Shown: positions 24,781 to 61,462, numbered from the stretch's first letter. The stretch: DNA of 64,000 nt from an uncultured Latescibacterota bacterium (GCA_958295785.1 OY282377.1:3534896-3598895), one strand, 5' to 3'. Notes: a model not told the origin generated them from the letters alone. Program-made: numbers and translations.

Positions 24781-24799
24781 AGGAGAAAGGAGTAACGTC

Positions 24800-26455: not shown

Positions 26456-26494
26456 GCATGACCGCTTTGTATTCTTCAACGCTTGGAGTTTCAA

Positions 26495-27088
26495 ATGGCA
26501 TCAGAAGCCATTGAAAAATTGATTGTCGGTTTGAATCGGTTGCCCGGAATCGGCGCCAAATCAGCGCGGCGCATCGCGCTGGATATGCTGACATGGGATA
26601 CGGAAGCGGTGCGCTCACTCGCCGATTTGATGGTCGATGTCAAGACTCGAGTGCGCCGTTGCTCAATCTGTTTTAATCTGACCGAGGTCGAACCGTGTTC
26701 TGTGTGTAGCGACGTGCGGCGAGATCGCTCCCGAGTGATGGTGATCGATTTTATCGGCGACTTGTTGGCATTTGAGCGCACGGGGCTTTATCGCGGGCTT
26801 TACCATGTGCTGGACGGGCGGATTTCGCCCTTGGACGGCGTTGGCCCAGAGGATTTAAATATTTCCCAACTGTTGCACCGCTTGCGCCAGGGGGAAATCC
26901 GCGAAGTGATTTTAGCCAATGGCCCAACAGTCGAAGGCGATGCCACCGCGCAATACCTGTCTCGGTGTTTGGCGCCTTATGAGGTGTCTGTCACGCAAAT
27001 TGCACGCGGGTTGCCCGTGGGCAGCGATCTCGCCCTGGCCGATCAAGTGACCTTGTCGCGCGCGCTGGAAGGACGTCGGGAGTACTAA
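26495..27088 (+). CDS. recR: Recombination protein RecR
   Basis: HhH LPGIGAKSARRIA, C4 zinc finger CSICFN...CSVCSD, Toprim region; GGAG RBS. Confidence 0.85.
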   Translation: MASEAIEKLIVGLNRLPGIGAKSARRIALDMLTWDTEAVRSLADLMVDVKTRVRRCSICFNLTEVEPCSVCSDVRRDRSRVMVIDFIGDLLAFERTGLYRGLYHVLDGRISPLDGVGPEDLNISQLLHRLRQGEIREVILANGPTVEGDATAQYLSRCLAPYEVSVTQIARGLPVGSDLALADQVTLSRALEGRREY

Positions 27089-45775: not shown

Positions 45776-46429
45776 TCAAATGGGTATAACACCCCTTTGT
45801 TTGAGCGTTTCGGGGGTATCAGCCGAGACAGAGATGGCGCCGAGTTCTCTGAGGTGGGCGTTGTCCGGCGAGTCCAAAGCGAATACCGGCTTGCCCTGGG
45901 CGAGCGCGGCCTTGCACAGCCCCTCGGTCTTGCTGCCCGGTTCGGCATGGGCGATGAAGATGTGGTCGGCCAACGCGGCGACGTAGGCATTGCGCCGGGC
46001 AGCTATAGCGACGGTTGGGCGCCGGATGGTGTCGGCGAAAAAGGACAGGATGAGCAAGCGGCCTTGGGTGAGTGCGGGTTTCCAACTTTTCGGGATTCGC
46101 AGGCGCTGGAATCCCCGCGCCGGACAAACGACAATGGACGCCGTGCCCCGCAACAGAATGTCCAGAAATTCTTTCTCCATCGCGGACTGAAAACCGCCGA
46201 TGATCGCCGCGTCTGCCTCTCGGAGTGCCTGCGCCAGATCATAGGTCTTGAGGATAATGTCGCCCGGACACCGCACAGAGCAAAAGAACCCAATCGGGGT
46301 TCTGTCCAGTGCGCCGAGATTGCCTCGTGCTGTGACGACAGGAGGGGTGCCGTTATCCTCACATTGGCGCAACACCGCCGGATAGTCCGCAGCGTCGGGG
46401 CTTAACAGCGTTTGCTTCTCATTATCCAT
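45776..46429 (-). CDS. DprA/Smf-like Rossmann-fold (SLOG) domain protein, short stand-alone version
   Basis: Matches DprA Rossmann core (...AIIGGF...EKEFL..., NAYVAALADHIFIAHAEPGSKTEGLCKAALAQGKPVFAL) but only 217 aa. Confidence 0.55.
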   Translation of the reverse strand: MDNEKQTLLSPDAADYPAVLRQCEDNGTPPVVTARGNLGALDRTPIGFFCSVRCPGDIILKTYDLAQALREADAAIIGGFQSAMEKEFLDILLRGTASIVVCPARGFQRLRIPKSWKPALTQGRLLILSFFADTIRRPTVAIAARRNAYVAALADHIFIAHAEPGSKTEGLCKAALAQGKPVFALDSPDNAHLRELGAISVSADTPETLKQRGVIPI

Positions 46430-46584: not shown

Positions 46585-46864
46585 GCGAGATACAAATTAC
46601 GCCCTGCTTTCGCCGCGCTTAGGAGAAGGCCAGCGCGGGATTGCTCGATGGGCAGTAGCTTCCCATTTGCGCGATTTATTCCCCTTCGACAACCGGATGG
46701 CCGTCTTCACCGCGTTCTGGGATCCTCGGATCTTCGTCGGTGAGGATGGCTTCTGACTCAGTGGGAGGGTCTTGAGTCTCATGGTTTATCTCCTTGAATT
46801 GACCCAAGAGGGTCAGCCCTTCATTTAGCTTGGGATTAGGGCATCAAAAATTGCATCTAATTCC
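46585..46864. repeat. Direct repeat B copy 1: degenerate copy of the 3' end of the protease gene plus its downstream sequence
   Basis: Approx 95% identical by eye to 47345-47634; a 1-nt deletion (AATCCCAAGC vs AATCCCCAAGC) frameshifts the protease reading frame. Confidence 0.7.
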
Positions 46865-46875
46865 GGTAGCAGTTA

Positions 46876-47085
46876 CTACATGTTTGTGTGGTCCGTCGTC
46901 GTTATTGTCTGCGGTTCTTTTGTTGCCGCTCGGTAAGCGTCAAGTCCGCTGTCGGCCTTTTGCCAGTTTCGATAGACTTCCATGACTTCGTGCACGCCCG
47001 GACGCGCCAATGCCGCTTCCAACATGGCCTTCCGGTCTTGCTCCCGCTTGGAGTCTCGATGCTTGGTTGCGTGTGTATCGCTCAT
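46876..47085 (-). CDS. Small hypothetical protein (69 aa)
   Basis: Strong AGGAGGA RBS 5 nt upstream of the ATG; no recognisable family. Confidence 0.35.
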   Translation of the reverse strand: MSDTHATKHRDSKREQDRKAMLEAALARPGVHEVMEVYRNWQKADSGLDAYRAATKEPQTITTTDHTNM

Positions 47086-47100
47086 TTTATCCTCCTATGT

Positions 47101-47316
47101 TCACATTCGTTGTTTGAAGTGTACGCAAAAATAAAATTGGTAGGCGATCATGTCGCGCTTGTGGGCGATGTCTTTGAGCGCGTAAGGCTTGTCGGCGACC
47201 GTGACTTCAACATCCGCTCCGCCGGGGTTCTAGCTGAACTCGTCAGTGAACAGCGTCTGGAGATCAAAGGTCTCCAGATGCTGTTTGACTTTGTTTCTGT
47301 CGAGAGGCGTCGACAT
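47101..47316 (-). pseudogene. Remnant of the N-terminus (approx first 60 codons) of a third PglX-like methyltransferase copy, with an in-frame TAG
   Basis: Translation MSTPLDRNKVKQHLETFDLQTLFTDEFS*NPGGADVEVTVADKPYALKDIAHKRDMIAYQ parallels MNFNRNTVKRHLENFDLQTLFIEELGWDHGGADTEVTIAGKTYALEAIAHKRGMVAYQ; TGG to TAG at 47229-47231. Confidence 0.6.
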
Positions 47317-47344
47317 TTCAAGGGCCTCACAAGGATGGCGGCGG

Positions 47345-47634
47345 CAGAATACAAATTACGCCCTGCTTTCGCCGTGCTTAGGAGAAGGCCAGCGCGGGAT
47401 TGCTCGATGGGCAGTAGCTTCCCATTTGCGCGATTTATTCCCCTTCGACAACCGGATGGCCGTCTCCACCGCGTTCCGAGTTCCTCGGCTCCGCGTTGGT
47501 GGAGTCGATTTCTGACTCTGTGGAGAGGTCTTGAGTCTCATGGTTTACCTCCTTGAATTGACCCAAGAGGGTCAGCCCTTCATTTAGCTTGGGGATTAGG
47601 GCATTAAAAATTTCATCTAATTCCTGCGGTGATT
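47345..47634. repeat. Direct repeat B copy 2 (functional 3' end of the protease gene and downstream sequence)
   Basis: See copy 1. Confidence 0.7.
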
Positions 47635-48469
47635 TTTCAACTTTTAGACCGATCCTCTCGGCCTCATCCGAGTCAATCACAAATCCGTGCTCGGGATATT
47701 GTTCCACTAAACGACGTGCTATCTTTCTCGATTGTTCATCTGTGTGTTTTGATGATAGCAAACGGATCGCATACTCCTCAGCCACTTGCAAAACTCGTGC
47801 CATTTGTGTGTAATGCACTGCGTCAATATTCTCTATTAAGGGCCGTATAAAATTGGCTGTGTACTCAAGGACAGGCGGCAAAATGGTTTCTATCTTTTTT
47901 CCTGTTCGCCCTAACAACAGCAACATAGTTTGATAGAAAACATTGAGTGCAGCGGCATTTAATCGTTCGAGGGTGTGAACCTCGTCAAGTGCCGACATAA
48001 CATTCTCTCTATCGACATCTCTTATTTGGACATCAAGCGGTCCCAACTCGGCATCTACCCCCAAGTAAATTTGATGTGCGCCGAGGGCAAGAAGTGTGGC
48101 CGCGCTTTTGGCATATCGGGGAATGAGTGCTATGAAACCGGCTCGTCGATTGAAAAGCCGAGCAATCTGATAGGCCACTCGAGTATCCCCGCCCGATGAA
48201 TCTATCAGTAGCAACGCTGGTTGTTCTGAGGATATCTGGCTCTTTCTTTCCAAAAATTCATGTTGCAACCCATCAGAAATTGGTTCTTCGCCAAAGAGGA
48301 ATAGCCAAAGCGGTAGATTCTCAAACTGCAATTGAGAGGGCAGGACAGCGTTCAAAGATCTCACGCTCATCTCTTGCAACTGACATAGCAGACGAGCAAA
48401 CTCGTCATCCAGTTCGGCTTTTTCGCCACAATATATGTCAGCGGTGTATTTCCGTTGGTTTTGGGACAT
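47435..48469 (-). CDS. SDH-family / ClpP-fold serine protease
   Basis: ClpP-like active-site context LLLIDSSGGDTRVAYQIARLF (compare ClpP INSPGG), approx 344 aa. Confidence 0.55.
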   Translation of the reverse strand: MSQNQRKYTADIYCGEKAELDDEFARLLCQLQEMSVRSLNAVLPSQLQFENLPLWLFLFGEEPISDGLQHEFLERKSQISSEQPALLLIDSSGGDTRVAYQIARLFNRRAGFIALIPRYAKSAATLLALGAHQIYLGVDAELGPLDVQIRDVDRENVMSALDEVHTLERLNAAALNVFYQTMLLLLGRTGKKIETILPPVLEYTANFIRPLIENIDAVHYTQMARVLQVAEEYAIRLLSSKHTDEQSRKIARRLVEQYPEHGFVIDSDEAERIGLKVEKSPQELDEIFNALIPKLNEGLTLLGQFKEVNHETQDLSTESEIDSTNAEPRNSERGGDGHPVVEGE

Positions 48470-48572: not shown

Positions 48573-48806
48573 TCACCGCCCCATGCGATACTTGATGTCG
48601 TAGTTGATGATGAAGTCCAATTCCTCGTCCGTGAAGCCGTAGTGTTTGGCCAACACGCGGTCAATTTCGTCGATAATAGGCTTTGATTCCCTATGGTAGT
48701 ACTCATAATCCGTTTGCTTAGTTCCAACAAATTTTTTGTTTTCTTCCAAGTGCAGTTCAAGAGACCTGCCAAGCTTGATGAGTGACTTTCTATTAGTTTT
48801 AGACAT
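48573..48806 (-). pseudogene. Displaced C-terminal fragment (77 codons) of methyltransferase copy 1, separated from the gene body by the IS
   Basis: Begins exactly at the IS left end; tail ...IDEIDRVLAKHYGFTDEELDFIINYDIKY parallels the copy-2 C-terminus ...HEIDEWISTTFSIKPERVEEI. Confidence 0.6.
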
Positions 48807-49900
48807 TTAGGACTTACGCATGCTGAGTTAAAAAAGGGTGCAATTCCGTAAAATTTATCACTTTGAGGAGGTATCAATGCGCCACCCGACGCGTTTGGAT
48901 TACTGTCAGTATCTGCTTAGCAGTCCCCTCAACTATACCCTGACCCATTTCGCCGACCATAGCGAAGGGTTCAGTCATGATATGATCAACCGCTATCTCG
49001 CCGGTGCGCGTATCCCACCCCGCTTGGTGTGGGAACACGTCAAAGACCACATCGCGTTGACGCCCAAAGGCTATGTGATCTTTGATGACACGGTTTTAGA
49101 CAAGCGACACGCACGCAAGATCGCGTTAGTGCGCCGTCAATATAGCGGCAACGCCCAAGGCGTCATCAACGGCATCGGGGTGGTCACATGTGTCTATGTC
49201 AATCCGCAAGAGGATCGGTTCTGGCTGATTGACTATCGGATTTATGACCCGCAAGGCGATGGCAAAACCAAATTGGATCATCTCAAGGACATGCTCTCTG
49301 GGTTGGTCTATCAGAAGCGCCTTCCTTTTACCGGGGTCTTGATGGACAGTTGGTATGCGACCAAAACGGTCATGCTACACATAGAGCAGATGCAAAAAAC
49401 CTATTATTGTCCCCTCAAGACGAACCGGCGCGTGGACGATTCGGCAGGCACAATCCCCTACCAGCGCGTAGATAGCTTAACTTGGACTCAAGAGGAGCGC
49501 AAACAAGGCAAGTCCATTAAAATCAGAGGGTTCCCCAAAGACCACAAAGTGAAATTATTCCGGGTGGCGTCTTCTGCCAGACGCACGGCGTATGTCGTGA
49601 CCAACGACCATGCTCAAAACGATTCTTCAGTGGTACAACAGGTGTGTCACCAAAGATGGAAAATTGAGCAATTTCACCGCGAAGTCAAACAAGTGACCGG
49701 GCTTGAAAAGTGTCAATGCCGGTTGGCACGCATTGTACGAAATCATATTGGGTGTGCGATGTTAGTTTGGATAAGACTCGAGCAGGTGGCCTATCAAACA
49801 GGACAAACCATTTATCAAGTCAAATACCGAGGGCTGGCTGACTTCTTGAGACAACAACTCAAAGCACCTCATATTCCAATGGTGATTGCGTAAGTCCTAA
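48807..49900 (+). mobile_element. Insertion sequence (approx 1.09 kb) with 13-bp perfect terminal inverted repeats TTAGGACTTACGC / GCGTAAGTCCTAA, inserted into methyltransferase copy 1
   Basis: Inverted repeats at 48807-48819 and 49888-49900; flanking CAT/ATG triplet appears duplicated (48804-48806 and 49901-49903). Confidence 0.7.
48877..49893 (+). CDS. DDE transposase (IS4/IS5/IS701-superfamily-like)
   Basis: GAGGAGG RBS; candidate DDE residues in VIFDDTVLDK, VLMDSWYATK and RWKIEQFHREVKQ. Confidence 0.65.
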   Translation: MRHPTRLDYCQYLLSSPLNYTLTHFADHSEGFSHDMINRYLAGARIPPRLVWEHVKDHIALTPKGYVIFDDTVLDKRHARKIALVRRQYSGNAQGVINGIGVVTCVYVNPQEDRFWLIDYRIYDPQGDGKTKLDHLKDMLSGLVYQKRLPFTGVLMDSWYATKTVMLHIEQMQKTYYCPLKTNRRVDDSAGTIPYQRVDSLTWTQEERKQGKSIKIRGFPKDHKVKLFRVASSARRTAYVVTNDHAQNDSSVVQQVCHQRWKIEQFHREVKQVTGLEKCQCRLARIVRNHIGCAMLVWIRLEQVAYQTGQTIYQVKYRGLADFLRQQLKAPHIPMVIA

Positions 49901-52900
49901 CATTTTTCCCAAGTCAATACGAAAATCGCTCACGTCATCAACAGTCAAATGCCAGCAGTCTCCTTTAGTTTCCCAATGCCAAAAGAACAAGCTGGAATTA
50001 AACACACCTGACAACTCCTCTGGTTGAATTCCTTTTGCCGGATAATAAGTTTTAAACTCCCGTGACTTCTTGGAGGCAAGAAAACACTTTACCCACATCA
50101 TCAATCTAATGTTCAAATAGAATGGTTGAGAATCAGTTTTGCGATTAGAGTACAACGTATTCAGTGGGAGAATGTCCCTGTTGATTTTGCTGATAATGGA
50201 TTCTTCAAGTTCCGTTGCAAACTTACGAATAAATCCCTTTCGATAGTTTAGTCTGTTGTAATCCAGGTTGTTAAAAAGATGATTCCTTTCACTGTCGGGA
50301 GCTCTTCCATAAAAGTGAGTAAATCCTGTGGAATGGATGGCAGAATTTCCCTTAGTGCAAAGTATGATTGAAAGTTTCTGATGTACCCCAAAAAATAATG
50401 TAGATGGTCTGTCAGCATAATTACTGATATGCAACATAGGATAGGTTGCGGTTATGACATTTCGAGCTTGATTCATCCTCTTGGTTGACACCCAAGAGAT
50501 AGGAATTATCCACCCCGCATTTCTTTGACCGAGCGAGGTTCCCCGCTCAAGCACGAAGGCGTAAAGGCTGCCGCAGGATTCGGTTTCGTAGCCTTTGACG
50601 GTGTAGCCTTCTTTGGTTTTTTTGACTTTGCTGTATTCCACATACGGCGGATTCCCAATAATCACATCAAAGCCACCCTTGTGCATGATGCCGTAGAACT
50701 CGACGAACCAATGAAACGGCTGATGGCTGTCGCGCCATCGCTGATACGCTCGCCGGCTCTTGGGCTTGACGCCGTATTCACCGGCCAAATACTCGTCCAA
50801 CTCATCGCGCAGATTAGTGAGGCGTTTCCGCAATTTCAACTTCGCGCTGGCAAACGCACTGGCGTCCATCCCAGGTTTCGTCTGCATCTGGCGGAACTGG
50901 CGAAAGGCGCGGTCGGCTTTCTCGGCGCGTTCCTCGATCTGGGGAAGCGACAGTTGCTTGATCAGGTCGCTACTCAATGCTTCCTTCACTTGCGCGAGCG
51001 AAGTGAAGCCGACGAGCGTGTTCCCGGCGCGGACGTTGAAGTCGATGTCGGGCAACGGCTCGATCTGCTCGTAAGTATCCAACTGCGCGACGAGTTTGAG
51101 GAACAGCCGCAGCTTGCAGATTTCCACCGCCTCCTCCATGATATCCACGCCGTAGAGATTGCCGATGATGATCGACTTGAGAATGAAATAGCGTTCGCTG
51201 GCGTGCTCTTCAACCTGTTGCAACACTTGGCGAAAATCGCGCAGTTTCTCGGGGCGGTGCTTGCGGTTCAAGCGTTCCAAGTCGTCGAGGAAACCGCGCA
51301 TGGCCTCCAAGCAGGCGACGTAGAGCGGCTCCAAAATGTTGAGCGCGGCGAATAGGAATGCGCCCGAGCCGCAGGTGGGATCGAGGACGGAGACCGCGTT
51401 GATCGCCTTCCAAAAAGCGTGCACCAGTTCCGGCCCCTCGCTGCTCGCAATGACGTCTTGGGCAAACTTTTCGATGTCCAAATTGTACGTGATCAGATCG
51501 TTGATCGACGCGATTGCACCAGCGGCGAGTTTGGCGCGGATGTCCTCATAGCGTTGGCGGCGGGCAATGTGCTCGCGCCACGTCTCGGTCGGCAGAGCGT
51601 ATTCGGGCGGGGCCGCTTCGTTCCAGCCATCGCGCTTTGCTATGTCGTCCAGACCGGCGGCGATCTCCGGCGGCAGGGCGCGTTTTTCGGCAAGGTCCGC
51701 GTTGTTGTGCAGATCGTAGGTGATGCCGTGACGCACCGCCTCGTGAAAGTAGCGATCCGGGGCGTCCGACAGCAACCGCCATATCCAGCCATCGGGCGAG
51801 AAGGCGATGGCGCATGCCTTTCGCGCTCGGTCGAACAAGAACGGAATGATGCTGTTGCGGCTAATGTAGCCGGTAATGTCTTCCTTGGTGTAGTACGCCC
51901 CCATCTGTTTCTGGTTGATGTACTTCTCGAAAATGTAGCCGAGCACATCGGGGTTGATCTCGTTGTCGTTGCGGAGCGGCCGGTCGTCGAGATGCCATTG
52001 GTACGCGTCGAAGAACGCGAAAATCTGTTCAAAGGCTTCGTCGGGAATGTGAATTTCCGGGTTGTCCCGCTCCAAGTCATGCACCTCGAACAAGCCGCCG
52101 TTGAGATAGGGGACTTTGCCGATCAGGGCGACCAAGGCGGGGGCGCGGTCAGCTTCGGGCTGTCCCAAGCCCTCGTGAAACAGCCGCAACAGGAACAGCC
52201 GGTAAAAGCCGAGGAAGTTGCCCTCGCCCTGTTGCTGGCGCACCCGTTCCAAACGGTCGCGCAGATAGTTTGGGTTGTTGTCGAGAAAACCGCGCTTCTG
52301 GATGAAGTAAATGAACATCATGCGATTGAGCATCAGCGAGGCGTACCACTCGCGGTCAGTCAAATTTTCAATGCCCTCGATGAAGTCCAGAAACGCGCTG
52401 TGCTCTTTCTTGAACCGGTCATAGAATCGCTTGGCGACTTTCTCCACATCGAAAGCCGCCCGCACTCGGCTCGTCACATCGACAAGGGTGAGGGCTTCTT
52501 CCTCCTCCAGCGCGAAGGCGATTTGCTCTAACTTCTGGACCAGGGATTCGCCCGATTGCCCCCGATCATAGATATGCTGTCGAGACCGATCGGGGCGACC
52601 CGGTTCGCGCTTGACCCATTGCCAATACTGGGCATCGGCGCGTGCGTAGATGATGAGGTGTTCGCGGACGGTCTTGGCGACATTCCGCTCGATCTTCTGC
52701 CGAGTGGGGTAATCGGGCAAGGCCCTGTCCGAATCCGCCATGTATTGATAGGCAACCATACCGCGCTTGTGGGCGATGGCCTCGAGCGCGTAAGTCTTAC
52801 CGGCGATAGTAACCTCGGTATCCGCTCCGCCGTGGTCCCAGCCGAGTTCTTCAATGAAGAGCGTCTGAAGATCGAAGTTCTCCAGATGTCGTTTGACTGT

Positions 52901-52918
52901 GTTTCTGTTGAAATTCAT
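49859..52918 (-). CDS. PglX/DrmMI-like (Eco57I-superfamily) N6-adenine DNA methyltransferase, copy 1; TRD truncated by the IS, so likely inactivated
   Basis: Motif I VLDPTCGSGAFL, motif IV IIGNPPYV; last 13 aa (LGLTQSPLEYEVL) are encoded by the IS right end. Confidence 0.75.
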   Translation of the reverse strand: MNFNRNTVKRHLENFDLQTLFIEELGWDHGGADTEVTIAGKTYALEAIAHKRGMVAYQYMADSDRALPDYPTRQKIERNVAKTVREHLIIYARADAQYWQWVKREPGRPDRSRQHIYDRGQSGESLVQKLEQIAFALEEEEALTLVDVTSRVRAAFDVEKVAKRFYDRFKKEHSAFLDFIEGIENLTDREWYASLMLNRMMFIYFIQKRGFLDNNPNYLRDRLERVRQQQGEGNFLGFYRLFLLRLFHEGLGQPEADRAPALVALIGKVPYLNGGLFEVHDLERDNPEIHIPDEAFEQIFAFFDAYQWHLDDRPLRNDNEINPDVLGYIFEKYINQKQMGAYYTKEDITGYISRNSIIPFLFDRARKACAIAFSPDGWIWRLLSDAPDRYFHEAVRHGITYDLHNNADLAEKRALPPEIAAGLDDIAKRDGWNEAAPPEYALPTETWREHIARRQRYEDIRAKLAAGAIASINDLITYNLDIEKFAQDVIASSEGPELVHAFWKAINAVSVLDPTCGSGAFLFAALNILEPLYVACLEAMRGFLDDLERLNRKHRPEKLRDFRQVLQQVEEHASERYFILKSIIIGNLYGVDIMEEAVEICKLRLFLKLVAQLDTYEQIEPLPDIDFNVRAGNTLVGFTSLAQVKEALSSDLIKQLSLPQIEERAEKADRAFRQFRQMQTKPGMDASAFASAKLKLRKRLTNLRDELDEYLAGEYGVKPKSRRAYQRWRDSHQPFHWFVEFYGIMHKGGFDVIIGNPPYVEYSKVKKTKEGYTVKGYETESCGSLYAFVLERGTSLGQRNAGWIIPISWVSTKRMNQARNVITATYPMLHISNYADRPSTLFFGVHQKLSIILCTKGNSAIHSTGFTHFYGRAPDSERNHLFNNLDYNRLNYRKGFIRKFATELEESIISKINRDILPLNTLYSNRKTDSQPFYLNIRLMMWVKCFLASKKSREFKTYYPAKGIQPEELSGVFNSSLFFWHWETKGDCWHLTVDDVSDFRIDLGKMLGLTQSPLEYEVL

Positions 52919-52958
52919 GGTGAAACCTCTACTGCGAAACTACGAAAAACGCGAAAAG
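50650..52958. repeat. Approx 2.3-kb near-identical direct repeat (copy 1) covering the methyltransferase 5' leader through the NPPY motif
   Basis: Matches 55195-57503; identity degrades at the low-coordinate boundary. Confidence 0.8.
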
Positions 52959-53016
52959 GCGCAAAAAAAACAATGCCCATTCTTCAGTCCTTTCGCGCCT
53001 TTCACGTTTTTCGTAG
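52936..53016. repeat. Long imperfect hairpin (22-bp arms CTACGAAAAACGCGAAAAGGCGC / GCGCCTTTCACGTTTTTCGTAG) between the HNH gene and methyltransferase copy 1
   Basis: Arms are near-perfect reverse complements separated by approx 35 nt; same motif family recurs at 57481-57668 and 58058. Confidence 0.45.
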
Positions 53017-53040
53017 TCCCTTTTCGCCCCATGCGATTTC

Positions 53041-54009
53041 TCAGGCCAACTCGACTCCCCGCAACTCACTGCCGAGTGAAAGGTTATCCGGTGCAGGAAA
53101 CCACTCGTCATTGGCTGGCAGAAGTAGTTCACTTCTGAGTTGCTCTTCGTACCTACTCAGCCCATCGGCTCTGCCCATTTTTTTTAAGTGCTTAACTCTA
53201 GACGAGTTCAGATGGATTGAGTAGTCATCCCGAACATAGAGTAGTCCGGTATCGAAAGACCGATGATGCAAGGAGCAAAGAGCCAAGCCATTGCTGACTA
53301 CATCATGCCCTTGTAGATGGGCGTGTGGCACAATATGAGCGGCATCTACAAGGCCCAGTTGAATCCCGCACATTGCACACCTGTAGGAGTACGCTTCTAA
53401 CACCGCTTGCCTGAATCGTGGGTTTCGAGGATACGCAGTACTAGTTACCTGTATTCTCTGTCGCTTGACCGCGATTGGTCGCGCAAGGAATTGCTTATAG
53501 TCTCGGGCTATCCTTTGCAATGCCCGATCAGTATCTCGGTGAAGTGCTGCCTGGTTCTCCACATACAAACCAATGAGATCGGGGCGAAACATGATCACGA
53601 TTTGCCCATCGGTGTCGGTATGAGTTGATAATCCCTGTGCGGCAGCCTCCTGCATGCGCGATAACCGAGTATAGAGAGAAAATCGCTGGACTCTCGATTT
53701 CCGGTCCAAAAGTCTGTCTGGATCCCATGCGCTGAATGTATTTACGTCTGCGGAAAATCCGAGAACGAGAACCTTGTCCTCCCTTTGTCTATTCCTGAGT
53801 TTCTCAGGCAAGTCGCCTGGACATTGGATCCGATATTCATCCGGCGTACGGCTAGTAGAATGGATGTTGCCAATGAAAACAGTAACGAACTTGTCTTTGA
53901 AGAAAAAGCGGTACGGATTGTCTCTGCCATCAAAATAGACGAGGTCTGTGTGTTGTCGAAAAGCGTCGAACAATGCATGGAACAGATCCATCTTGTTTAG
54001 TATGACCAT
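53041..54009 (-). CDS. HNH endonuclease with approx 200-aa uncharacterised N-terminal domain
   Basis: C-terminal HNH motif CAMCGIQLGLVDAAHIVPHAHLQGHDVVSNGLALCSLHHRSFD. Confidence 0.7.
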   Translation of the reverse strand: MVILNKMDLFHALFDAFRQHTDLVYFDGRDNPYRFFFKDKFVTVFIGNIHSTSRTPDEYRIQCPGDLPEKLRNRQREDKVLVLGFSADVNTFSAWDPDRLLDRKSRVQRFSLYTRLSRMQEAAAQGLSTHTDTDGQIVIMFRPDLIGLYVENQAALHRDTDRALQRIARDYKQFLARPIAVKRQRIQVTSTAYPRNPRFRQAVLEAYSYRCAMCGIQLGLVDAAHIVPHAHLQGHDVVSNGLALCSLHHRSFDTGLLYVRDDYSIHLNSSRVKHLKKMGRADGLSRYEEQLRSELLLPANDEWFPAPDNLSLGSELRGVELA

Positions 54010-54037
54010 TTCAAATTATCCTCAATCGTTATGCCGA

Positions 54038-57000
54038 CTAAATTTCTTCAACGCGCTCAGGTTTAATCGAGAATGTCGTCGATATCCACTCGTCAATTTC
54101 GTGCAGACGACCATCGGCGGAAAAATCCATGGGACTCGGCGGCAGGAAACGCTCTCTTAGAGATGGGGGGATGTTCTTCTCTCCGGCTTCGTAGTTGATA
54201 CTACGTACCAAAGAAATAAAAAAAAATAATTCTTTCAAATCAGCCCAACCTGCACCCAGTCCCGAAAGAAATACAACATCGGCCTTTCTCGTCAGTGAAA
54301 GCAACTTTTGATAGTTGAAATTTCCAACGTACTTACCTGCGTTTTTCTTAAAGACAAGCGCGGAATATCTTTGTTGGTGTAGTAATTCTCCAATGGTAGC
54401 CAGCCTGCGTAAATGATCTTTTGGAAACGAAGCGATGGGCGCGAGGAGGTCCGTGAGTAACCAGTTTGTAACGTGGAATCCATCCCCTCGCGTTAGCCAA
54501 TACCAAAAGCAGGCGTCGCCTGCTGTACTCGCGAGCGCGGCAAATGCTATCTCATCAGAGGGCAGTGTCAGCCAGCCGCACTGAGCGGGATCGAGCACAC
54601 ATCCGTCATCTACGTGCAATACGGGTGGCTGTTCAAGATATGTAGAAATGAAATTCCGCGCTGTGGGCGAAAATCCCAATCTGACTGTTGCACCATCTGT
54701 AGCGCAGGGCGAGGTTGGCTTTGAGGGAGATGACTCGATGTGCAATGCCAACAGTTTTGCACAGTAGCGATTCGCCAAGCGGGGAATGCCGAAATTTTCG
54801 GCGGGGACGCCATTAGCTACCTTGTTATAGGTTATGTTGTTCAGCAGAAAAGTCCGAAACGCCGAGCGCCATCTAAAGAGACGAGTGGCGAACGAATCGC
54901 CATCCGATGGGGAACTAAGCCAGATTGTGCATCGCTGGCTTACGCCGGAAAAGAGGGTTGCGGGCCCATTGTCGAAAGAAGAAAACCAATGCGTCCCCCT
55001 GTTGGCGAGTTGCCCCCGGAGGTCAGAAAACTCAAAGCTGAAGGTCACAGAAAGGGGAACAATAACCCCGTAGCGTCCGCACTGATTGGTGATGCGGTGG
55101 GATTGCATGACCACGTATCCATAAATGTCCGGGAATTTCAGGGACTTGGGCGACTGCACAACGTATTCCAGTGACTTGCAGTTGATATACGGCGGGTTCC
55201 CGATCACCACATCAAAGCCGCCCTTGTGCATGATGCCGTAGAACTCGACGAACCAATGAAACGGCTGGTGGCTGTCGCGCCATCGCTGATACGCTCGCCG
55301 GCTCTTGGGCTTGACGCCGTATTCACCGGCCAAATACTCGTCCAATTCGTCGCGCAGATTGGTGAGGCGTTTCCGCAATTCCGACTTCGCGCTGGCAAAC
55401 GCACTGGCATCCATCCCAGGTTTCGTCTGCATGGCGTGGAACTGGCGAAAGGCGTGGTCGGCTTTCTCGGCGCGTTTCTCGATCTGGGGAAGCGACAGTT
55501 GCTTGATCAGGTCGCTACTCAATGCTTCCTTCACTTGCGCGAGCGACGTGAAGCCGACGAGCGTGTTCCCGGCGCGGACGTTGAAGTCGATGTCGGGCAA
55601 CGGCTCGATCTGCTCGTAAGTATCCAACTGCGCGACGAGTTTGAGGAACAGCCGTAGCTTGCAGATTTCCACCGCCTCCTCCATGATATCCACGCCATAG
55701 AGATTGCCGATGATGATCGACTTGAGAATGAAATAGCGTTCGCTGGCGTGCTCTTCAACCTGTTGCAACACTTGGCGGAAGTCGCACAGTTTCTCGGGAT
55801 GGTGCTTGCGGTTCGAGCGTTCCAAGTCGTCGAGGAAACCGCGCATGGCCTCCAAGCAGGCGACGTAGAGCGGCTCCAAAATGTTGAGCGCGGCGAATAG
55901 GAATGCGCCCGAGCCGCAGGTGGGATCGAGGACGGAGACCGCGTTGATCGCCTTCCAAAAAGCGCGAATCAGTTCCGGCCCCTCGCTGCTCGCAATGACG
56001 TCTTGGGCAAACTTTTCGATGTCCAAATTGTACGTGATCAGATCGTTGATCGACGCGATTGCACCAGCGGCGAGTTTGGCGCGGATGTCCTCATAGCGTT
56101 GGCGGCGGGCGATGTGCTCGCGCCACGTCTCGGTCGGCAGAGCGTATTCGGGCGGGGCCGCTTCGTTCCAGCCATCGCGCTTTGCTATGTCGTCCAGACC
56201 GGCGGCGATCTCCGGCGGCAGGGCGCGTTTTTCGACAAGGTCCGCGTTGTTGTGCAGATCGTAGGTGATGCCGTGACGCACCGCCTCGTGAAAGTAGCGA
56301 TCCGGGGCGTCCGACAGCAACCGCCATACCCAGCCATCGGGCGAGAAGGCGATGGCGCATGCCTTTCGCGCTCGGTCGAACAAGAACGGAATGATGCTGT
56401 TGCGGCTAATGTAGCCGGTGATGTCTTCCTTGGTGTAGTACGCCCCCATCTGTTTCTGGTTGATGTACTTCTCGAAAATGTAGCCGAGCACATCGGGGTT
56501 GATCTCGTTGTCGTTGCGGAGCGGCCGGTCGTCGAGATGCCATTGGTACGCGTCGAAGAACGCGAAAATCTGTTCAAAGGCTTCGTCGGGAATGTGAATT
56601 TCCGGGTGGTCCCGCTCCAAGTCATGCACCTCGAACAAGCCGCCATTGAGATAGGGGACTTTGCCGATCAGGGCGACCAAGGCGGGGGCGCGGTCGGCTT
56701 CGGGCTGTCCCAAGCCCTCGTGAAACAGCCGCAACAGGAACAGCCGGTAAAAGCCGAGGAAGTTGCCCTCGCCCTGTTGCTGGCGCACCCGTTCCAAACG
56801 GTCGCGCAGATAGTTTGGGTTGTTGTCGAGAAAACCGCGCTTCTGGATGAAGTAAATGAACATCATGCGATTGAGCATCAGCGAGGCGTACCACTCGCGG
56901 TCAGTCAAATTTTCAATGCCCTCGATGAAGTCCAGAAACGCGCTGTGCTCTTTCTTGAACCGATCATAGAATCGCTTGGTGACTTTCTCCACATCGAAAG

Positions 57001-57463
57001 CCGCCCGCACTCGGCTCGTCACATCGACAAGGGTGAGGTCTTCTTCCTCCTCCAGCGCGAAGGCGATTTGCTCTAACTTCTGGACCAGGGATTCGCCCGA
57101 TTGCCCCCGATCATAGATATGCTGTCGAGACCGATCGGGGCGACCCGGTTCGCGCTTGACCCATTGCCAATACTGGGCATCGGCGCGTGCGTAGATGATG
57201 AGGTGTTCGCGGACGGTCTTGGCGACATTCCGCTCGATCTTCTGCCGAGTGGGGTAATCGGGCAAGGCCCTGTCCGAATCCGCCATGTATTGATAGGCAA
57301 CCATACCGCGCTTGTGGGCGATGGCCTCGAGCGCGTAAGTCTTACCGGCGATAGTAACCTCGGTATCCGCTCCGCCGTGGTCCCAGCCGAGTTCTTCAAT
57401 GAAGAGCGTCTGAAGATCGAAGTTCTCCAGATGTCGTTTGACTGTGTTTCTGTTGAAATTCAT
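54038..57463 (-). CDS. PglX/DrmMI-like (Eco57I-superfamily) N6-adenine DNA methyltransferase, copy 2 (1141 aa, apparently intact)
   Basis: Motif I VLDPTCGSGAFL, motif IV VIGNPPYI; N-terminal approx 745 aa approx 97-98% identical (by eye) to copy 1; C-terminal approx 390 aa unrelated. Confidence 0.8.
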   Translation of the reverse strand: MNFNRNTVKRHLENFDLQTLFIEELGWDHGGADTEVTIAGKTYALEAIAHKRGMVAYQYMADSDRALPDYPTRQKIERNVAKTVREHLIIYARADAQYWQWVKREPGRPDRSRQHIYDRGQSGESLVQKLEQIAFALEEEEDLTLVDVTSRVRAAFDVEKVTKRFYDRFKKEHSAFLDFIEGIENLTDREWYASLMLNRMMFIYFIQKRGFLDNNPNYLRDRLERVRQQQGEGNFLGFYRLFLLRLFHEGLGQPEADRAPALVALIGKVPYLNGGLFEVHDLERDHPEIHIPDEAFEQIFAFFDAYQWHLDDRPLRNDNEINPDVLGYIFEKYINQKQMGAYYTKEDITGYISRNSIIPFLFDRARKACAIAFSPDGWVWRLLSDAPDRYFHEAVRHGITYDLHNNADLVEKRALPPEIAAGLDDIAKRDGWNEAAPPEYALPTETWREHIARRQRYEDIRAKLAAGAIASINDLITYNLDIEKFAQDVIASSEGPELIRAFWKAINAVSVLDPTCGSGAFLFAALNILEPLYVACLEAMRGFLDDLERSNRKHHPEKLCDFRQVLQQVEEHASERYFILKSIIIGNLYGVDIMEEAVEICKLRLFLKLVAQLDTYEQIEPLPDIDFNVRAGNTLVGFTSLAQVKEALSSDLIKQLSLPQIEKRAEKADHAFRQFHAMQTKPGMDASAFASAKSELRKRLTNLRDELDEYLAGEYGVKPKSRRAYQRWRDSHQPFHWFVEFYGIMHKGGFDVVIGNPPYINCKSLEYVVQSPKSLKFPDIYGYVVMQSHRITNQCGRYGVIVPLSVTFSFEFSDLRGQLANRGTHWFSSFDNGPATLFSGVSQRCTIWLSSPSDGDSFATRLFRWRSAFRTFLLNNITYNKVANGVPAENFGIPRLANRYCAKLLALHIESSPSKPTSPCATDGATVRLGFSPTARNFISTYLEQPPVLHVDDGCVLDPAQCGWLTLPSDEIAFAALASTAGDACFWYWLTRGDGFHVTNWLLTDLLAPIASFPKDHLRRLATIGELLHQQRYSALVFKKNAGKYVGNFNYQKLLSLTRKADVVFLSGLGAGWADLKELFFFISLVRSINYEAGEKNIPPSLRERFLPPSPMDFSADGRLHEIDEWISTTFSIKPERVEEI

Positions 57464-57503
57464 GGTGAAACCTCTACTGCGAAACTACGAAAAACGCGAA
57501 AAA
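55195..57503. repeat. Approx 2.3-kb near-identical direct repeat (copy 2)
   Basis: See 50650-52958. Confidence 0.8.
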
Positions 57504-57526
57504 GGCAAGGCCATAGCCCCGCTTTG

Positions 57527-57668
57527 ATTTTCGCGTCCTTTCGCGCTTTTCGTAGTGGAAAATACGATCATCTATAACTACGAAAGAGAAAAAAAAGACA
57601 AAGCCCACTCCTCGCCCCTTTCGCGTCCTTCCGCGCTTTTCGTAGTGGAAAATACGATCATCCTATAA
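57527..57668. repeat. Tandem approx 90-bp units containing palindromic motif TTTCGCGTCCTTTCGCGCTTTTCGTAGTGGAAAATACGATCATC in the methyltransferase-2 leader
   Basis: Units at 57527-57578 and 57620-57668 plus partial third copy at 58058-58085; CTACGAAA/TTTCGTAG inverted cores. Confidence 0.5.
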
Positions 57669-57686
57669 GACGCGAAAGGGATGTTT

Positions 57687-58052
57687 TACAATTCGTTGAC
57701 GAAACGTTCGTATTCTAATTTTGGGTGATAGCCGAAATTGACGAGCAGGCCGAGTTTCATACCTGTTGATTTCAGGTAATTGATGATTTGGCGCGATGTC
57801 GGTCTTGATTTCCACAATTATTGTGTCGAAACAGAGAAAATCAGGTAGGTAGAACTGCTTCAACGCCTGCCCTTTGTAACGAAGTTTCAATTTTGTCTTT
57901 TCCTTGTGCGGGATATCCGAAGAAGTGAATTCCATTGCGAGGCACTCTTGATAAACAGCTTCGAGAAAGCCGGATCCTTTTTCTTTGTACACTTCAAAGC
58001 AGGCACCGATAATCCGGTAACTTTCTTCCTGATAGACAATTTTTCCAGTCAT
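57687..58052 (-). pseudogene. GxxExxY-family (PD-(D/E)XK-like) protein gene with an internal frameshift or small deletion
   Basis: N-part MTGKIVYQEESYRIIGACFEVYKEKGSGFLEAVYQEC...IIVEIKTDIA in one frame; C-part QIINYLKSTGMKLGLLVNFGYHPKLEYERFVNEL in another; ATG overlaps helicase stop as ATGA. Confidence 0.6.
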
Positions 58053-61000
58053 AATTTTCGCGTCCTTTCGCGCTTTTCGTCGTTCATCAGACCCATAGAG
58101 CAGATAATGCGCGGCTCTTGGCGTTCGTCTTCTTCGTGCATGATGCAAAGCCGGTCGTCATCTCTGAGCGCGATAACCAATTGCGCGAGGGCCTCGTCGG
58201 AGATGCTGCTACGCAACTGGCGGTTCAGCGTATCCACCGCCGTTTGGCGCAGGGGATAGCGGTAAATGTCTTCAATTGTACGCCGCAGCGAATCGGTATC
58301 GAACAACGTGCCTTTGACGTTTTCCGCATAGCTCTTGAGCCTTTCATAAGCGCGAAACCGCGCACCGGATGGCCGGCCGAGATGACCGCCGACCTGCTTT
58401 TCCTCACGGGCGATATGTTCTGCGGCTTTGCGAACCAAATCGTGGTGGGTCTCGTGGCGCGGGAGGGCCGGCGTATCGGGCACGCATGCGGCGGCGTGCA
58501 AAATCTCGAATTGACTTTCGGTCACGCTATTGCCATCGCGATTCATCCACGCCAAGGCATCGTGCCCCTGCGCTGTACGCATATAAACCAGCGCGCCTTC
58601 GGGCCGCTGTGGCGTTTCCGGATATGCCATTGATGAATGCACCACGGATGGCATCGCTTCAATTTTCCGCTCGAGCGATGGATCGGCTGTTGTCGCGTTT
58701 TTCCAAATCTGATACGCATACGAGGCGAGATCGACATCCGTCTCGTCGTCGCTGTCGAGAATCCCCGCCTTTTCGTTGTAGAGGTCGAGCACGGCCCGTT
58801 GATCCTCATCCTCGAAAAACGCCTCGTCCGTTCCCATCACCTCGGCATTGTCGCGGAGGCGCGTCCGAACGCGGGCGCGAAGTCGGATCAAGCGTTCAAT
58901 GCCCTCGGCAGGCAAAAAGGAGCAGCACAAAATATCTCGCGCCTGTTGACCGATGCGGTCCACGCGCCCGGCCCGTTGAATCAAGCGGATAATCGCCCAC
59001 GGCAAATCGTAATTGACAACGATGGCGCAGTCTTGCAGGTTTTGCCCCTCACTGAGCACGTCGGTTGCGACCAGCACGCGCAACTCGCCTCTAGATGAGA
59101 CCCAAGCCGTCTTGTCGTTGCTCTTTGGACTGAACCGCCACGCGAGTTCCGTCGGGTTCGCCATGTCCCCAGTCGCGGCGGCTATCCCGGACACGCCGCG
59201 TGCTTTTAGCTCCATCTCCAAATAGCGCACCGTGTCGGCGAACTGCGTAAAGACCAGAATTTTGCGGTCGGGATGTTCGTCCATGAGCAGGACTTCCAAG
59301 GCGCGGAGTTTCGCGTCTTCAGCCGCCCGCCACGCGCCGAACTGCGCCAACAAATTGAGCAGCGTCTCGGTGTCGGCGACCAAGTTCCTGCGAAGGGCGT
59401 CGCCAAAATGATGCGAGGCCAACCACCGAAACCGCCTTGTGTAGGTGTTGGCAAAGCGTGCGTAGATCGCGGCAGCGCGGTTGCGAAAATCCCTTTCGGC
59501 TCTTAGCGGCGTCGGCTCTGCGGGGGCCTCATTCTCCTCGTCATCCGCATCAAAAAAATCCCCGATAGTCTGATCGGCGTCCTCGTCAAAAGACTGCGGA
59601 TCCAAGAGTCCCGCATCTGTCGTCCCTATCGGAAGCGGCAGGTCATTTTCAAGGGCATACAAAAAAATGAAGTTCCGCAGAACGTGCCGTTCAACCGACA
59701 GCAAGAAGGCGTGGCCGCTGCTCTCCAAGCGTTTGAACAAATTGGTTCGGCAAAAACCCATCAGCCGCTTGCCCGCGCGCGACAAATCGTCCAGCACCTT
59801 CTTTTCTCTCGGCGTGGGTGGCATAGGCGGCGACGCCCCGACGTAGTTGCCGAGTCCATAGCGCGGCAGTTCCAAGCTGTTTATGGCGTCGATCACGTCG
59901 TTTGCAAATAGCCGGGCGTACTGATCGTCAATGTCGAACGGAATCGTCTTTGGAACCCGAGTCGGAAAATACGACCGCGTGCCATCTTCAAAGGTCAGGT
60001 ACTTGCGACCACTGTGCGGATCCGTGTCGGCGTAGTGTGCACGAATAAAACTGCGCGTCCGGCGCACGAGATATAAGCGCATGAGCTCGCGCCAGTCGTC
60101 CGCGTACTCGGATTTTTCAAACGCGGATAGAGACCGCACAGACGCTTGGTGCCGGCGGATGAACTCGGTTTCGCCGATCTCCTGCAACATGCGCTCTGGG
60201 CGAATGCCCAAGTCCTCGTCTTCGGGCACAAACAAGCGGAGTTGGCTGGACAGATCGAGATACGTTTTGTTGTAGGGCGTCGCGGACAGCAGAATACACT
60301 TGCTGTCGTTTTCCCAGATGTATTCTCGGATGGCCCGGTAGCGTTTGCCCTCGCGGTTTCTCAGGTTGTGGCTTTCGTCGATGATCACCAACCGATACCG
60401 GCGCAGGTCGGGCAGTTCGTTGATGACGCGGCTCACCGATAGCACGCGGGCGCGCATGCGGTATTGATCGCGGTAATCCTCCCACATGGAAACGAGGTTT
60501 TTCGGACTTATGATCAGGGTTTCGAGGCCGTGATCGTCTTCGAACACACGCGCCAAGGCCGTCGCCATCAGGGTCTTGCCCAGCCCGACGACATCGCCGA
60601 TGATGACGCCGCCGCGTCGGTTGAGGTGATGCGCGGCGATTTTCACGGCAGCCGTTTGGAAATCGAGGAGTTTGTCGCCAAAATCTTTCGGGATGCGAAA
60701 TTCCGCCAAGCCGGCCCGCGCTTCTTGCGAGAGGTGGTACGCAATCTTGATGTAGATATGGTGCGGCGGGATCAGTTCTTCTCGCGCCCAACTCTCGTCG
60801 ATAATCTCGGCGAGCGCGTCAGAAATATCCACGCACCAGCGGTCATTCCAGCGGTCTTCAAACCACTGGGCGAGTTTTTCGCAGGCGTCTCGGTCGAGCA
60901 CGTCAATGTTGAGTTCGCCCTGTCGGGACAGCCCCGATAGCGTGAGATTGCTGCTTCCGAGATAGCCAACCGTCGGGTTGATCGGATCGGGACGGAATAA

Positions 61001-61462
61001 CAAGTAGAGCTTGGCGTGAAGCGGGTGTTTGAGAAAGAGCTTGACGACGACTTTCTCAGCCTTGATCTGCGCTGCCAACCGCCGCAGACCCGCCTCATCT
61101 TCATTGGTCGGCGCGCCCAAGATCAGTTGTTCCCGAAATTCTTCCGCGAGTCTTTTCTTTATGCGGTGTGCCGCCTGATTGTCGAGCGCGGAGCGATTGC
61201 CCGACAAGCTCGCGGACAGCCGAAACTCGTCGTGTGGCAAGCGTTGCATCCCAACGAGAAGCCGGCAACAATGTCCGACGCCTCCGCGCCACTTTTCCAC
61301 GTATTCATCAATTGACCGCCATCCTCGCAGGTTGAAATAGCCCACGCAAAAATCCGCCCGCTCTGCGATCTCCAGGGTCTCCGCCAACGCGGGATGGAGG
61401 TGTTGTTCAATATTGTCGAAAATTCGGGGCATACATGCTCCTACGGTTTGGAATTGGATCAT
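58049..61462 (-). CDS. Fusion protein: N-terminal PLD-family (single HKD) nuclease-like domain + SNF2-family helicase
   Basis: HKD motif HAKLYLLFRPD...GSSN; SNF2 motifs GLGKTL (I), IIDESHNLRN (II), helicase-C QRAGRVDRIGQ (VI); AGGAGA RBS. Confidence 0.8.
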   Translation of the reverse strand: MIQFQTVGACMPRIFDNIEQHLHPALAETLEIAERADFCVGYFNLRGWRSIDEYVEKWRGGVGHCCRLLVGMQRLPHDEFRLSASLSGNRSALDNQAAHRIKKRLAEEFREQLILGAPTNEDEAGLRRLAAQIKAEKVVVKLFLKHPLHAKLYLLFRPDPINPTVGYLGSSNLTLSGLSRQGELNIDVLDRDACEKLAQWFEDRWNDRWCVDISDALAEIIDESWAREELIPPHHIYIKIAYHLSQEARAGLAEFRIPKDFGDKLLDFQTAAVKIAAHHLNRRGGVIIGDVVGLGKTLMATALARVFEDDHGLETLIISPKNLVSMWEDYRDQYRMRARVLSVSRVINELPDLRRYRLVIIDESHNLRNREGKRYRAIREYIWENDSKCILLSATPYNKTYLDLSSQLRLFVPEDEDLGIRPERMLQEIGETEFIRRHQASVRSLSAFEKSEYADDWRELMRLYLVRRTRSFIRAHYADTDPHSGRKYLTFEDGTRSYFPTRVPKTIPFDIDDQYARLFANDVIDAINSLELPRYGLGNYVGASPPMPPTPREKKVLDDLSRAGKRLMGFCRTNLFKRLESSGHAFLLSVERHVLRNFIFLYALENDLPLPIGTTDAGLLDPQSFDEDADQTIGDFFDADDEENEAPAEPTPLRAERDFRNRAAAIYARFANTYTRRFRWLASHHFGDALRRNLVADTETLLNLLAQFGAWRAAEDAKLRALEVLLMDEHPDRKILVFTQFADTVRYLEMELKARGVSGIAAATGDMANPTELAWRFSPKSNDKTAWVSSRGELRVLVATDVLSEGQNLQDCAIVVNYDLPWAIIRLIQRAGRVDRIGQQARDILCCSFLPAEGIERLIRLRARVRTRLRDNAEVMGTDEAFFEDEDQRAVLDLYNEKAGILDSDDETDVDLASYAYQIWKNATTADPSLERKIEAMPSVVHSSMAYPETPQRPEGALVYMRTAQGHDALAWMNRDGNSVTESQFEILHAAACVPDTPALPRHETHHDLVRKAAEHIAREEKQVGGHLGRPSGARFRAYERLKSYAENVKGTLFDTDSLRRTIEDIYRYPLRQTAVDTLNRQLRSSISDEALAQLVIALRDDDRLCIMHEEDERQEPRIICSMGLMNDEKRERTRKL

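Follow-up and report, generated by a model that had tools for sequence, protein, structure and literature searches.

Gene Content of the Locus

We analyzed a 64,000-nucleotide stretch of DNA from an uncultured Latescibacterota bacterium (GCA_958295785.1, OY282377.1:3534896-3598895; hereafter the window), in which two tandem DNA methylase genes, M1 and M2, share a nearly identical front block and then part into very different rear modules. The locus is best described as a putative chromosomal restriction-modification-like defense operon, composed of a helicase, a methylase of ~1100 amino acids (aa), a variable cargo slot, and a DprA-like protein. An earlier reading made from the sequence alone (the sequence-only reading) had regarded the gene pair as a built-in specificity switch. 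Our results point to the exchange of rear modules by general homologous recombination as the likely origin of the arrangement. The operon genes and the parts of the two methylases are listed below, with positions counted from the first letter of the window. The rear module of M1 is termed C1, and the methylase positions occupied by M2 and M1 are termed slot 1 and slot 2, respectively.

58049..61462, minus strand: HKD(PLD)-nuclease plus SNF2 helicase, 1137 aa
54038..57463, minus strand: M2, intact, 1141 aa, predicted Eco57I/PglX-like gamma-class N6-adenine methylase, full-length match to PADLOC PDLC03628
55187..57508, minus strand: repeat copy 2, a 45-bp 5' leader plus M2 codons 1-759, through NPPY
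54038..55186, minus strand: rear module C2, 382 aa, motifs V-VIII plus target recognition domain (TRD)
53041..54009, minus strand: MTaX1 plus HNH_2 nuclease, 322 aa, partner of C2-type methylases
49901..52918, minus strand: 5' part of M1, 1006 codons, up to the insertion sequence (IS); annotated open reading frame (ORF)
50642..52964, minus strand: repeat copy 1, a 46-bp 5' leader plus M1 codons 1-759
48807-49900, plus strand: IS701-family element with perfect 14-bp terminal inverted repeats (TTAGGACTTACGCA) and a CAT target duplication
48573..48806, minus strand: displaced 3' end of M1, 76 codons plus stop (48573-48575)
45776..46429, minus strand: DprA-like (SLOG) protein, 217 aa, conserved last operon gene

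A Direct Repeat Ends at Motif IV

Self-comparison of the region, the check that the sequence-only reading had proposed, returned one long direct repeat, 50642-52964 against 55187-57508. The copies differ by 41 mismatches and a single gap in 2323 bp (98.2% identity), which excludes a chance origin and bears out the claim of a near-identical 2.3-kb front block in both paralogs. The estimate by eye of about 18 substitutions was likewise close, as we counted 17 aa differences in 759 codons (40 nucleotide differences within the 2277 shared coding bases). Identity had been placed from ~40 bp upstream of the ATG through the NPPY motif; column-by-column alignment sets the 5' edge 45-46 bp upstream of the ATGs at 52918 and 57463 and the 3' edge at the last base of the NPPY codons, beyond which the DNA is unalignable. 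Coding bases 1-424 do not differ between the copies. The gradual decay reported just before the break is also present, with 5 of the 40 differences falling in the last 35 bp of the shared block. The repeats are separated by 2.2 kb, giving a repeat unit of 4.5 kb. GC content is 55-60% (host-like) in the shared block, 39% in C1, 45-54% in C2, and 48-50% in the HNH gene. Both blocks have antisense ORFs of 276-370 aa on the plus strand (50525-52531 and 55226-57076). These come in duplicate because the repeat does, and the best explanation is that GC-rich coding sequence produces them incidentally and that they are not genes.

The rear parts had been called completely unrelated. This holds for the DNA but not for the proteins: M1 and M2 retain 22-24% aa identity behind the break (24% over 137 aa, E=7e-7), and a full-length BLASTP alignment extends to about residue 990. 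The two rear parts are remote homologs within one domain family. The break had also been assigned to the junction between catalytic domain and TRD, whereas it actually falls at motif IV (NPPY), inside the catalytic domain. The Pfam Eco57I match (PF07669) runs past it, to residue 834 in M1 and residue 808 in M2. Since this domain extends beyond NPPY, the exchanged unit comprises the rear of the catalytic domain together with the TRD. A break at NPPY and not at a domain border suggests that the most conserved motif itself is the crossover anchor.

M1 does not end naturally at position 49901, as had been assumed; the IS701-family element interrupts the gene there, and the annotated ORF reads 13 extra codons into the element, to 49859. 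The transposase lies at 48838-49893 on the plus strand and matches the NCBIfam IS701 model at 398 bits. When the element is excised in silico, the M1 frame continues from 48803 to 48576 and ends in YGFTDEELDFIINYDIKYRMGR followed by the stop. This conserved tail, YGFTDEELDFIINYDIKYRMGR, lies within the displaced 3' end (48573..48806) and would act as a 3' recombination anchor. For annotation, the consequence is that the second methylase gene of this genome is IS-disrupted.

Predicted Architecture of the Methylases

Motif I (DPTCGSGAFL, residues 513-522) and motif IV (NPPY, residues 756-759) are present in both copies and invariant in 24 homologs. Both proteins match PF07669 above the gathering score (E=4e-26 and 3e-22), consistent with gamma-class N6-adenine methylases of the Eco57I/PglX type. 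The annotation label REase_MTase_IIG comes from PADLOC PDLC03628, which matches M1 at 1028 bits (profile positions 1-1013 of 1100) and M2 at 943 bits. No conserved residues of a D...(D/E)XK nuclease site were found in the N-domain across the 24 homologs compared. The "Type IIG" label is probably misleading. No NCBIfam equivalog reached its cut-off for the methylase. A profile search of the Protein Data Bank (PDB) gave BREX PglX/BrxX, MmeI, and TaqI as nearest neighbors, all weak, and a PDB sequence search with M2 alone returned no match. The full-length AlphaFold model of M2 (predicted local distance difference test score, 58.6; predicted template modeling score, 0.37) was set aside, and the model of the N-domain alone was used.

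A slowly evolving block would span residues 1-759 and comprise an N-domain that is nuclease-like but degenerate, a helical region, and motifs X to IV. Behind it, the final 325-390 residues, with motifs V-VIII and the TRD, would constitute a hypervariable module, proposed to set specificity. C1-like modules appear to have the NPPY region as their 5' border and a conserved tail of ~25 codons as their 3' border. M1 and M2 each have their own leader and ribosome-binding site.

This division is reflected in the conservation profile of the family, in which values of 0.4-0.95 drop to 0.17-0.38 after residue 775 and recover to 0.52-0.56 over the last 30 residues. Moderately conserved motifs continue to about residue 850, and the truly variable stretch follows. 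In 189 of the 228 homolog pairs with a block identity of 75% or more, the identity of the rear parts is below 45%, showing that front block and rear part are uncoupled across the family.

Alternative Modules in Co-occurring Strains

We compared the window with four related contigs from one metagenome (ENA ERZ19489113), all representing the same chromosomal site with the same housekeeping genes around it.

L001, 5.63 Mb: tandem lacking the IS and the GxxExxY insert, 99.3% identity to the window in the flanks
L086, 56.5 kb: tandem, slot-2 module C4
L087, 2.95 Mb: lone C2 gene plus HNH, hairpin, 69-aa region, third-gene relic, IS1595
L088, 1.80 Mb: single gene right after the helicase, module C4, then TIR, 69-aa ORF, DprA-like gene

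Near-identical strains thus carry three alternative rear modules at slot 2, each starting at NPPY. C1, C3 (in L001), and C4 are mutually 35-37% identical, within flanks that are 98.5-99.3% identical. The second gene of L001 is intact (1087 aa), and its C3 module is 35% identical to C1; identity between L001 and the window resumes at 48644-48542, which corresponds to the last 25 codons plus 28 bp beyond. The C2 protein, by comparison, is 100% identical in L001 and 99.7% identical in L087. The C4 protein is 100% identical in L086, where it occupies slot 2, in L088, where it occupies slot 1, and in P0028. The single-gene strains L087 and L088 align collinearly at 99.0% identity, starting far upstream, and diverge from the NPPY codons onward; L088 has neither C2 nor HNH. 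The L088 block differs least from slot 1 of L001 (20 differences), and between nucleotides 2202 and 2244 it takes on C1/C4-linked variants, the same variants that cause the gradual decay in M1. L087 and L088 thus each carry one methylase gene, and the window has one intact gene, M1 being broken by the IS. Modules swapped at an orthologous position between conserved flanks are the pattern expected of module exchange by homologous recombination, that is, domain movement (DoMo) or allelic TRD replacement, and we assign the locus to this class on the strength of these alignments.

The closest relatives of C1, stand-alone proteins of ~330 aa (58-64% identical), had suggested silent C-terminal cassettes. 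This idea was rejected on the two contexts examined: L084 is a gene split at a contig edge, and L085 is a truncated remnant beside a decayed CRISPR-Cas locus. Look-ups of exact copies of the M2, HNH, and DprA-like proteins of the window, and of P0001, gave no match. Exact-match scans of Joint Genome Institute metagenome contigs with a C1-specific 41-mer and a block 33-mer returned no match.

Recombination Signal in the Shared Block

Both blocks of the window and both of L001 were compared as a set of four copies, with pairwise identities of 97.8-98.4%. All three two-by-two partitions of the variable sites are present and clustered, with seven sites grouping the copies by genome, six by slot, and nine crosswise. 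Tight clusters of singletons also occur, such as ten sites within 22 bp at nucleotides 2040-2061, implying donors beyond the sampled copies. A recombination test was then applied to seven block copies from five strains, with the slot-1 block of L086 omitted for its many 1-bp indels. Among 55 informative sites, 694 of 1485 pairs (47%) fail the four-gamete test, and a statistic of the pairwise homoplasy index (PHI) type gave 0.384 against 0.468 +/- 0.018 under permutation, with none of 5000 permutations as low (p<2e-4). The front blocks are a recombinational mosaic.

The claim that recombination or gene conversion was anchored at the junction therefore stands in its first part, given the mosaic and the alternative modules at the block end; the anchor is motif IV and not the domain junction. 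Divergence between the window and L001 is ~0.2% in the helicase, nil over 1 kb of C2, 1-2.5% in the blocks, and 3-8% in the HNH gene. The 3' half of the MTaX1-HNH gene is 5-8% divergent (window 53041-53530 against L001 9390-9878), and may be a separate hotspot of recombination or diversification.

Distribution of the Operon across Species

We next turn to a scan of one genome per species, in which 80 loci were recovered; Latescibacterota, Acidobacteriota, Binatia, Nitrospirota, and Dehalococcoidia are among the many phyla represented. The HKD-SNF2 helicase lies directly upstream of the methylase in ~75 of the 80 loci, and a DprA-like gene lies downstream in 58, across a gap of 9 bp to 7.4 kb. 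On these frequencies, the core of the operon consists of helicase, methylase, and DprA-like gene, all of which the window has. The helicase-nuclease is presumably the restriction partner of the methylase. The DprA-like protein shows weak PADLOC matches to PsyrA (E=1.7e-14) and ShosA. We found no name for this helicase/methylase/DprA-like operon in the published literature.

The gap between the methylase and the DprA-like gene holds diverse cargo: MTaX1-HNH, SMODS, Cap17-like, AbiJ, PIN, and TIR genes, as well as an OLD-family ATPase with a UvrD-like helicase (Gabija-like). It appears to be a hotspot for defense cargo inside the operon, like those of Hma, BREX, and Type I systems. MTaX1 has been described solely as a putative modified-DNA-discriminating domain in restriction-modification neighborhoods (PMC10853773). 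Downstream of a C2-type module, MTaX1-HNH was present in 11 of 11 loci, and no locus had HNH apart from C2, so the two behave as one inherited unit. C2 orthologs in other phyla are 75-83% identical and always accompanied by HNH. Essentially every species in the scan carries a single methylase, which makes the tandem peculiar to the species of the window.

Some relatives look damaged. One contig (L083; ENA ERZ23495684 scaffold_3063, 1780-7541) encodes an M2-like methylase, 89% identical, without the helicase; its companions are an MTaX1 gene cut down to 115 aa and an unknown protein of 567 aa. This may be a decayed or orphan version of the operon. Interrupted or truncated methylase genes were also seen in L060, L013, L027, L067, L029, and L044. 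In L060 (12350-15343), a ~2-kb insertion lies inside the rear module; premature stops occur in others. Disrupted genes thus seem to be common in this methylase family.

Neighboring Features and Relics

The remaining features around the methylases in the window are as follows.

57663-58148: decayed GxxExxY/PDDEXK_3 gene between helicase and M2, profile positions 2-77 of 117 matched
57529-57572, 57619-57662, and 58056-58099, minus strand: three copies of a 44-nucleotide hairpin arm
52935..53018, minus strand: long hairpin element between HNH and M1, upstream of M1
47435..48469, minus strand: SDH-type ClpP-like serine protease (cargo), whose 3' end forms repeat S1 (47349-47624)
47304 to 47134, minus strand: M3 relic (third methylase), codons 3-59, 57 codons with an in-frame stop, 80% nucleotide and 63% aa identity
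46876..47085, minus strand: 69-aa ORF, 3' of the methylase, kept in all five strains
46590..46864, minus strand: repeat S2, 92% identical to S1 (47349-47624), a relic 3' end from a second SDH-protease gene

The long hairpin has a stem of about 30 bp (-52 kcal/mol, z -5.6), and the 5' edge of the repeat lies in its 3' arm. A hairpin follows both the helicase and the HNH gene, with related copies upstream of M2 and around the GxxExxY insert. That insert is shared with L086 but missing from L001, L087, and L088, and looks like a small mobile or hitch-hiking insertion.

The M3 relic directly abuts the promoter region of the 69-aa ORF and lies between two SDH-protease 3' ends (46590-47624). The same relic occurs in L087 (14550-16900), beside IS1595. 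This arrangement implies that three methylase-plus-cargo units once formed an array, which later collapsed; the relic and the duplicated protease ends show that the site had expanded and contracted before.

Elsewhere in the window, a pair of genes for small coiled-coil/membrane proteins (135/142 aa and 104/109 aa) is tandemly duplicated as a unit at 24787-26415 (704 bp, 90% identical). We take its flanks to be dnaX and a small 120-aa ORF (24418-24780), and a 201-aa ORF (26483-27088) that is recR-like by eye. Two tRNA genes with long variable arms, 85% identical, lie at 21548-21634 and 21694-21780, a third tRNA gene at 22200-22272, and a large signal recognition particle RNA at 22359-22627 (Rfam, 178 bits).

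Proposed Mechanism and Alternatives

We consider it likely that the locus arose by cassette exchange and unequal crossing-over through general, RecA-type homologous recombination, with no programmed switch. We observed directly that the blocks are repeated and mosaic, that one position carries different modules, and that single-gene strains coexist with tandem ones. Blocks in this population are all ~98% alike whatever their slot or module, with short tracts still exchanged by gene conversion, and the near-identity of the two blocks of the window is thus not special to this pair. Rear modules, often with a linked cargo gene, would be replaced by homologous recombination using the conserved flanks. 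The block would provide the 5' anchor, with crossovers often near NPPY, and in C1-like types the tail or the downstream flank would provide the 3' anchor. Tandem and single-gene states would interconvert through unequal crossing-over or deletion between blocks or hairpins: the tandem could form from L087-like and L088-like alleles by hairpin-to-hairpin or block-to-block exchange, and the reverse event would resolve it. In the window, the cargo slot contains the HNH partner of C2 and then a second full methylase gene with C1, now broken by the IS. The rear modules may set DNA specificity, which would then differ between C1, C2, C3, and C4.

Several points weigh against this account. Singletons make up 60 of the 82 variable sites in the four-copy comparison, and donors outside the sampled copies, or mutation, are therefore needed. 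The slot-1 gene of L086 contains numerous 1-bp indels, which mark either a pseudogene or faulty assembly. L088 is no simple one-step derivative of L086, because the downstream genes differ (TIR versus SDH protease). Each event may have been an insertion or a deletion. Domain boundaries rest on Pfam and conservation because the whole-protein AlphaFold model is poor.

The sequence-only reading raised the possibility that the direct repeats are maintained as a programmed switch, for recurrent adaptive deletion of C2 plus HNH that fuses the block to the downstream module. Repeats of 2.3 kb at 98% identity and 2.2 kb apart are a good RecA substrate, one metagenome holds both the single and the tandem state, and in the co-occurring L088 the single gene has the fused form, its module matching one found in slot 2 exactly. 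L088 (single gene, C4) thus has the architecture that the proposed deletion predicts, although the change could have run in either direction. Against a switch, the L088 crossover lies in the last ~75 bp of the block and not at a random position. In this genome, a deletion would join the block to an IS-disrupted module. As the repeats are direct, deletion is one-way and irreversible. Both genes are complete, with their own leaders and ribosome-binding sites, and no promoterless cassettes are present. The sequence-only reading had itself noted the lack of a site-specific recombinase, and correctly so: no recombinase or integrase was found among the locus genes of the window, L001, L086, L087, and L088, only IS transposases (IS701, and IS1595 in L087). 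A search for inverted repeats in 47-60 kb gave a single weak 33-nucleotide pair (73%), unrelated to the genes. With no inverted repeats, recombinase, or silent partial cassettes, the likeness to hsdS or mod shuffling is not supported. The tandem is, moreover, kept in at least three strains and essentially unique to this species among the 80 species loci. We regard a programmed switch as improbable. A milder alternative, which we hold to be doubtful, is that two separate modules sit side by side, with M2 and MTaX1-HNH as their own pair and M1 as the true partner of helicase and DprA-like protein (or the reverse), block identity being a passive by-product. The strict linkage of C2 with MTaX1-HNH and the tendency of the methylase-DprA-like slot to gather unrelated defense genes fit this idea. 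In species with C2 and HNH, however, the C2 methylase is the sole methylase beside the helicase and so also serves the core operon; the idea is in any case compatible with recombinational exchange, and amounts to a functional nuance and not a true alternative.

An assembly artifact, in which L087-like and L088-like haplotypes were concatenated into a false tandem, deserves mention because the genome and the comparison contigs are metagenome assemblies of strain mixtures containing both single-gene alleles, and because L086 shows signs of poor local consensus. The junction from HNH through the hairpin to the second ATG nevertheless recurs in three or more contigs that were assembled independently, each with its own slot-2 module (C1, C3 in L001, and C4 in L086), which makes an artifact very unlikely. 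Contig 18875 adds P0243 and P0028, and C1 and C3 are absent from all single-gene strains sampled. The 4.5-kb repeat unit is also shorter than typical long reads. Hardly credible at all is a simple recent tandem duplication whose rear diverged fast under diversifying selection, with no recombination or horizontal input. The copies are indeed adjacent, in the same orientation, and identical over their first 424 bp. This reading is already contradicted by the knife-edge boundary between 98% block identity and 22-24% rear identity, by the GC contrast between C1 (39%) and block (57%), by the 75-83% identical C2 orthologs that accompany HNH in other phyla, by three alleles at the same position within ~99% identical flanks, and by the four-gamete and PHI evidence.

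Cassette exchange by general recombination can be extended into a broader proposal, which we put forward tentatively. The operon may itself be an uncharacterized widespread defense system with a plug-in position, at which the rear module and the adjacent effector (MTaX1-HNH, TIR, SDH protease, and others) would be exchanged as one cassette, with motif IV and the conserved tail or downstream flank as anchors. Tandem methylases would be a normal turnover intermediate. If true, the plug-in tandem would keep the genome protected under the old specificity while gaining a new one.

Comparison with Known Systems

The genes at the locus (helicase, HNH, SDH protease, DprA-like, and housekeeping genes) can be set against several known systems. 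Among the closest by sequence are the BREX methylases PglX/BrxX (8C45, 9EWZ), the best PDB and profile neighbor of the methylase. Unlike BREX, the locus has no PglZ, BrxC, or BrxL genes, and the BREX_1_MTaseX score is 55 bits against a cut-off of 500. The helicase gives partial matches to DrmD, BrxH, and DpdE, and a methylase with an SNF2-type motor is an idea shared with class 1 DISARM and BREX. Unlike class 1 DISARM (DrmMI/DrmD), neither the window locus nor L001 contains DrmA or DrmB, and DrmD scores 119 bits against 610. The Type IIL/IIG enzymes (MmeI 5HR4, DrdV 7LO5, BpuSI 3S1S) differ in that the N-domains of the 24 homologs examined here have no conserved D...(D/E)XK; moreover, the present methylase is paired with an HKD-SNF2 helicase and usually a DprA-like gene, and its similarity to the solved enzymes is marginal. 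The terminal DprA-like protein recalls PsyrTA/ShosTA, and the partner toxin of PsyrTA is a helicase. The matches are partial and below the curated threshold, the helicase here combines SNF2 with an HKD nuclease, and the methylase lies between the two genes.

In phase-variable hsdS shufflons, whose programmed inversions have been catalogued (PMC9881135), several specificity modules at one locus share repeats and generate population heterogeneity in methylation specificity, a heterogeneity that is predicted here as well. A shufflon is reversible and works through inverted repeats and silent partial cassettes, usually with a recombinase close by. In contrast, the present repeats are direct, both genes are complete, no recombinase is found, and deletion is one-way.

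The nearest parallel in mechanism is Helicobacter pylori, in which Type I, IIG, and III genes undergo TRD allelic exchange and domain movement (Furuta et al., PMC3077401, PMC3983042). As in H. pylori TRD exchange and the DNA-recognition-domain alleles of Type III mod genes, a conserved body flanks a variable module on both sides. Close strains likewise carry unrelated modules at one position, and homologous recombination needs no dedicated recombinase. Unlike in H. pylori, the exchanged unit begins at motif IV and includes the rear of the catalytic domain; an effector gene downstream often moves along with it, as MTaX1-HNH does with C2; two full-length tandem genes share a 2.3-kb block, apparently as an intermediate; and the host system is a helicase/methylase/DprA-like operon of uncultured bacteria. 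Exchange of recognition modules is itself already known, and the motif-IV breakpoint, the effector co-transfer, the tandem, and the operon setting are what differ.

Most evidence for recognition-module swapping comes from a few cultured pathogens. Here, long-read assemblies captured co-occurring uncultured strains with a single C2, a single C4, and tandems of C2 with C1, C3, or C4, and they outline a common three-gene operon (HKD-SNF2 helicase, PglX-like methylase, DprA-like protein) with an internal hotspot for defense cargo. Since module exchange is expected in principle, this population snapshot and the apparently unnamed operon are the more valuable parts of the comparison.

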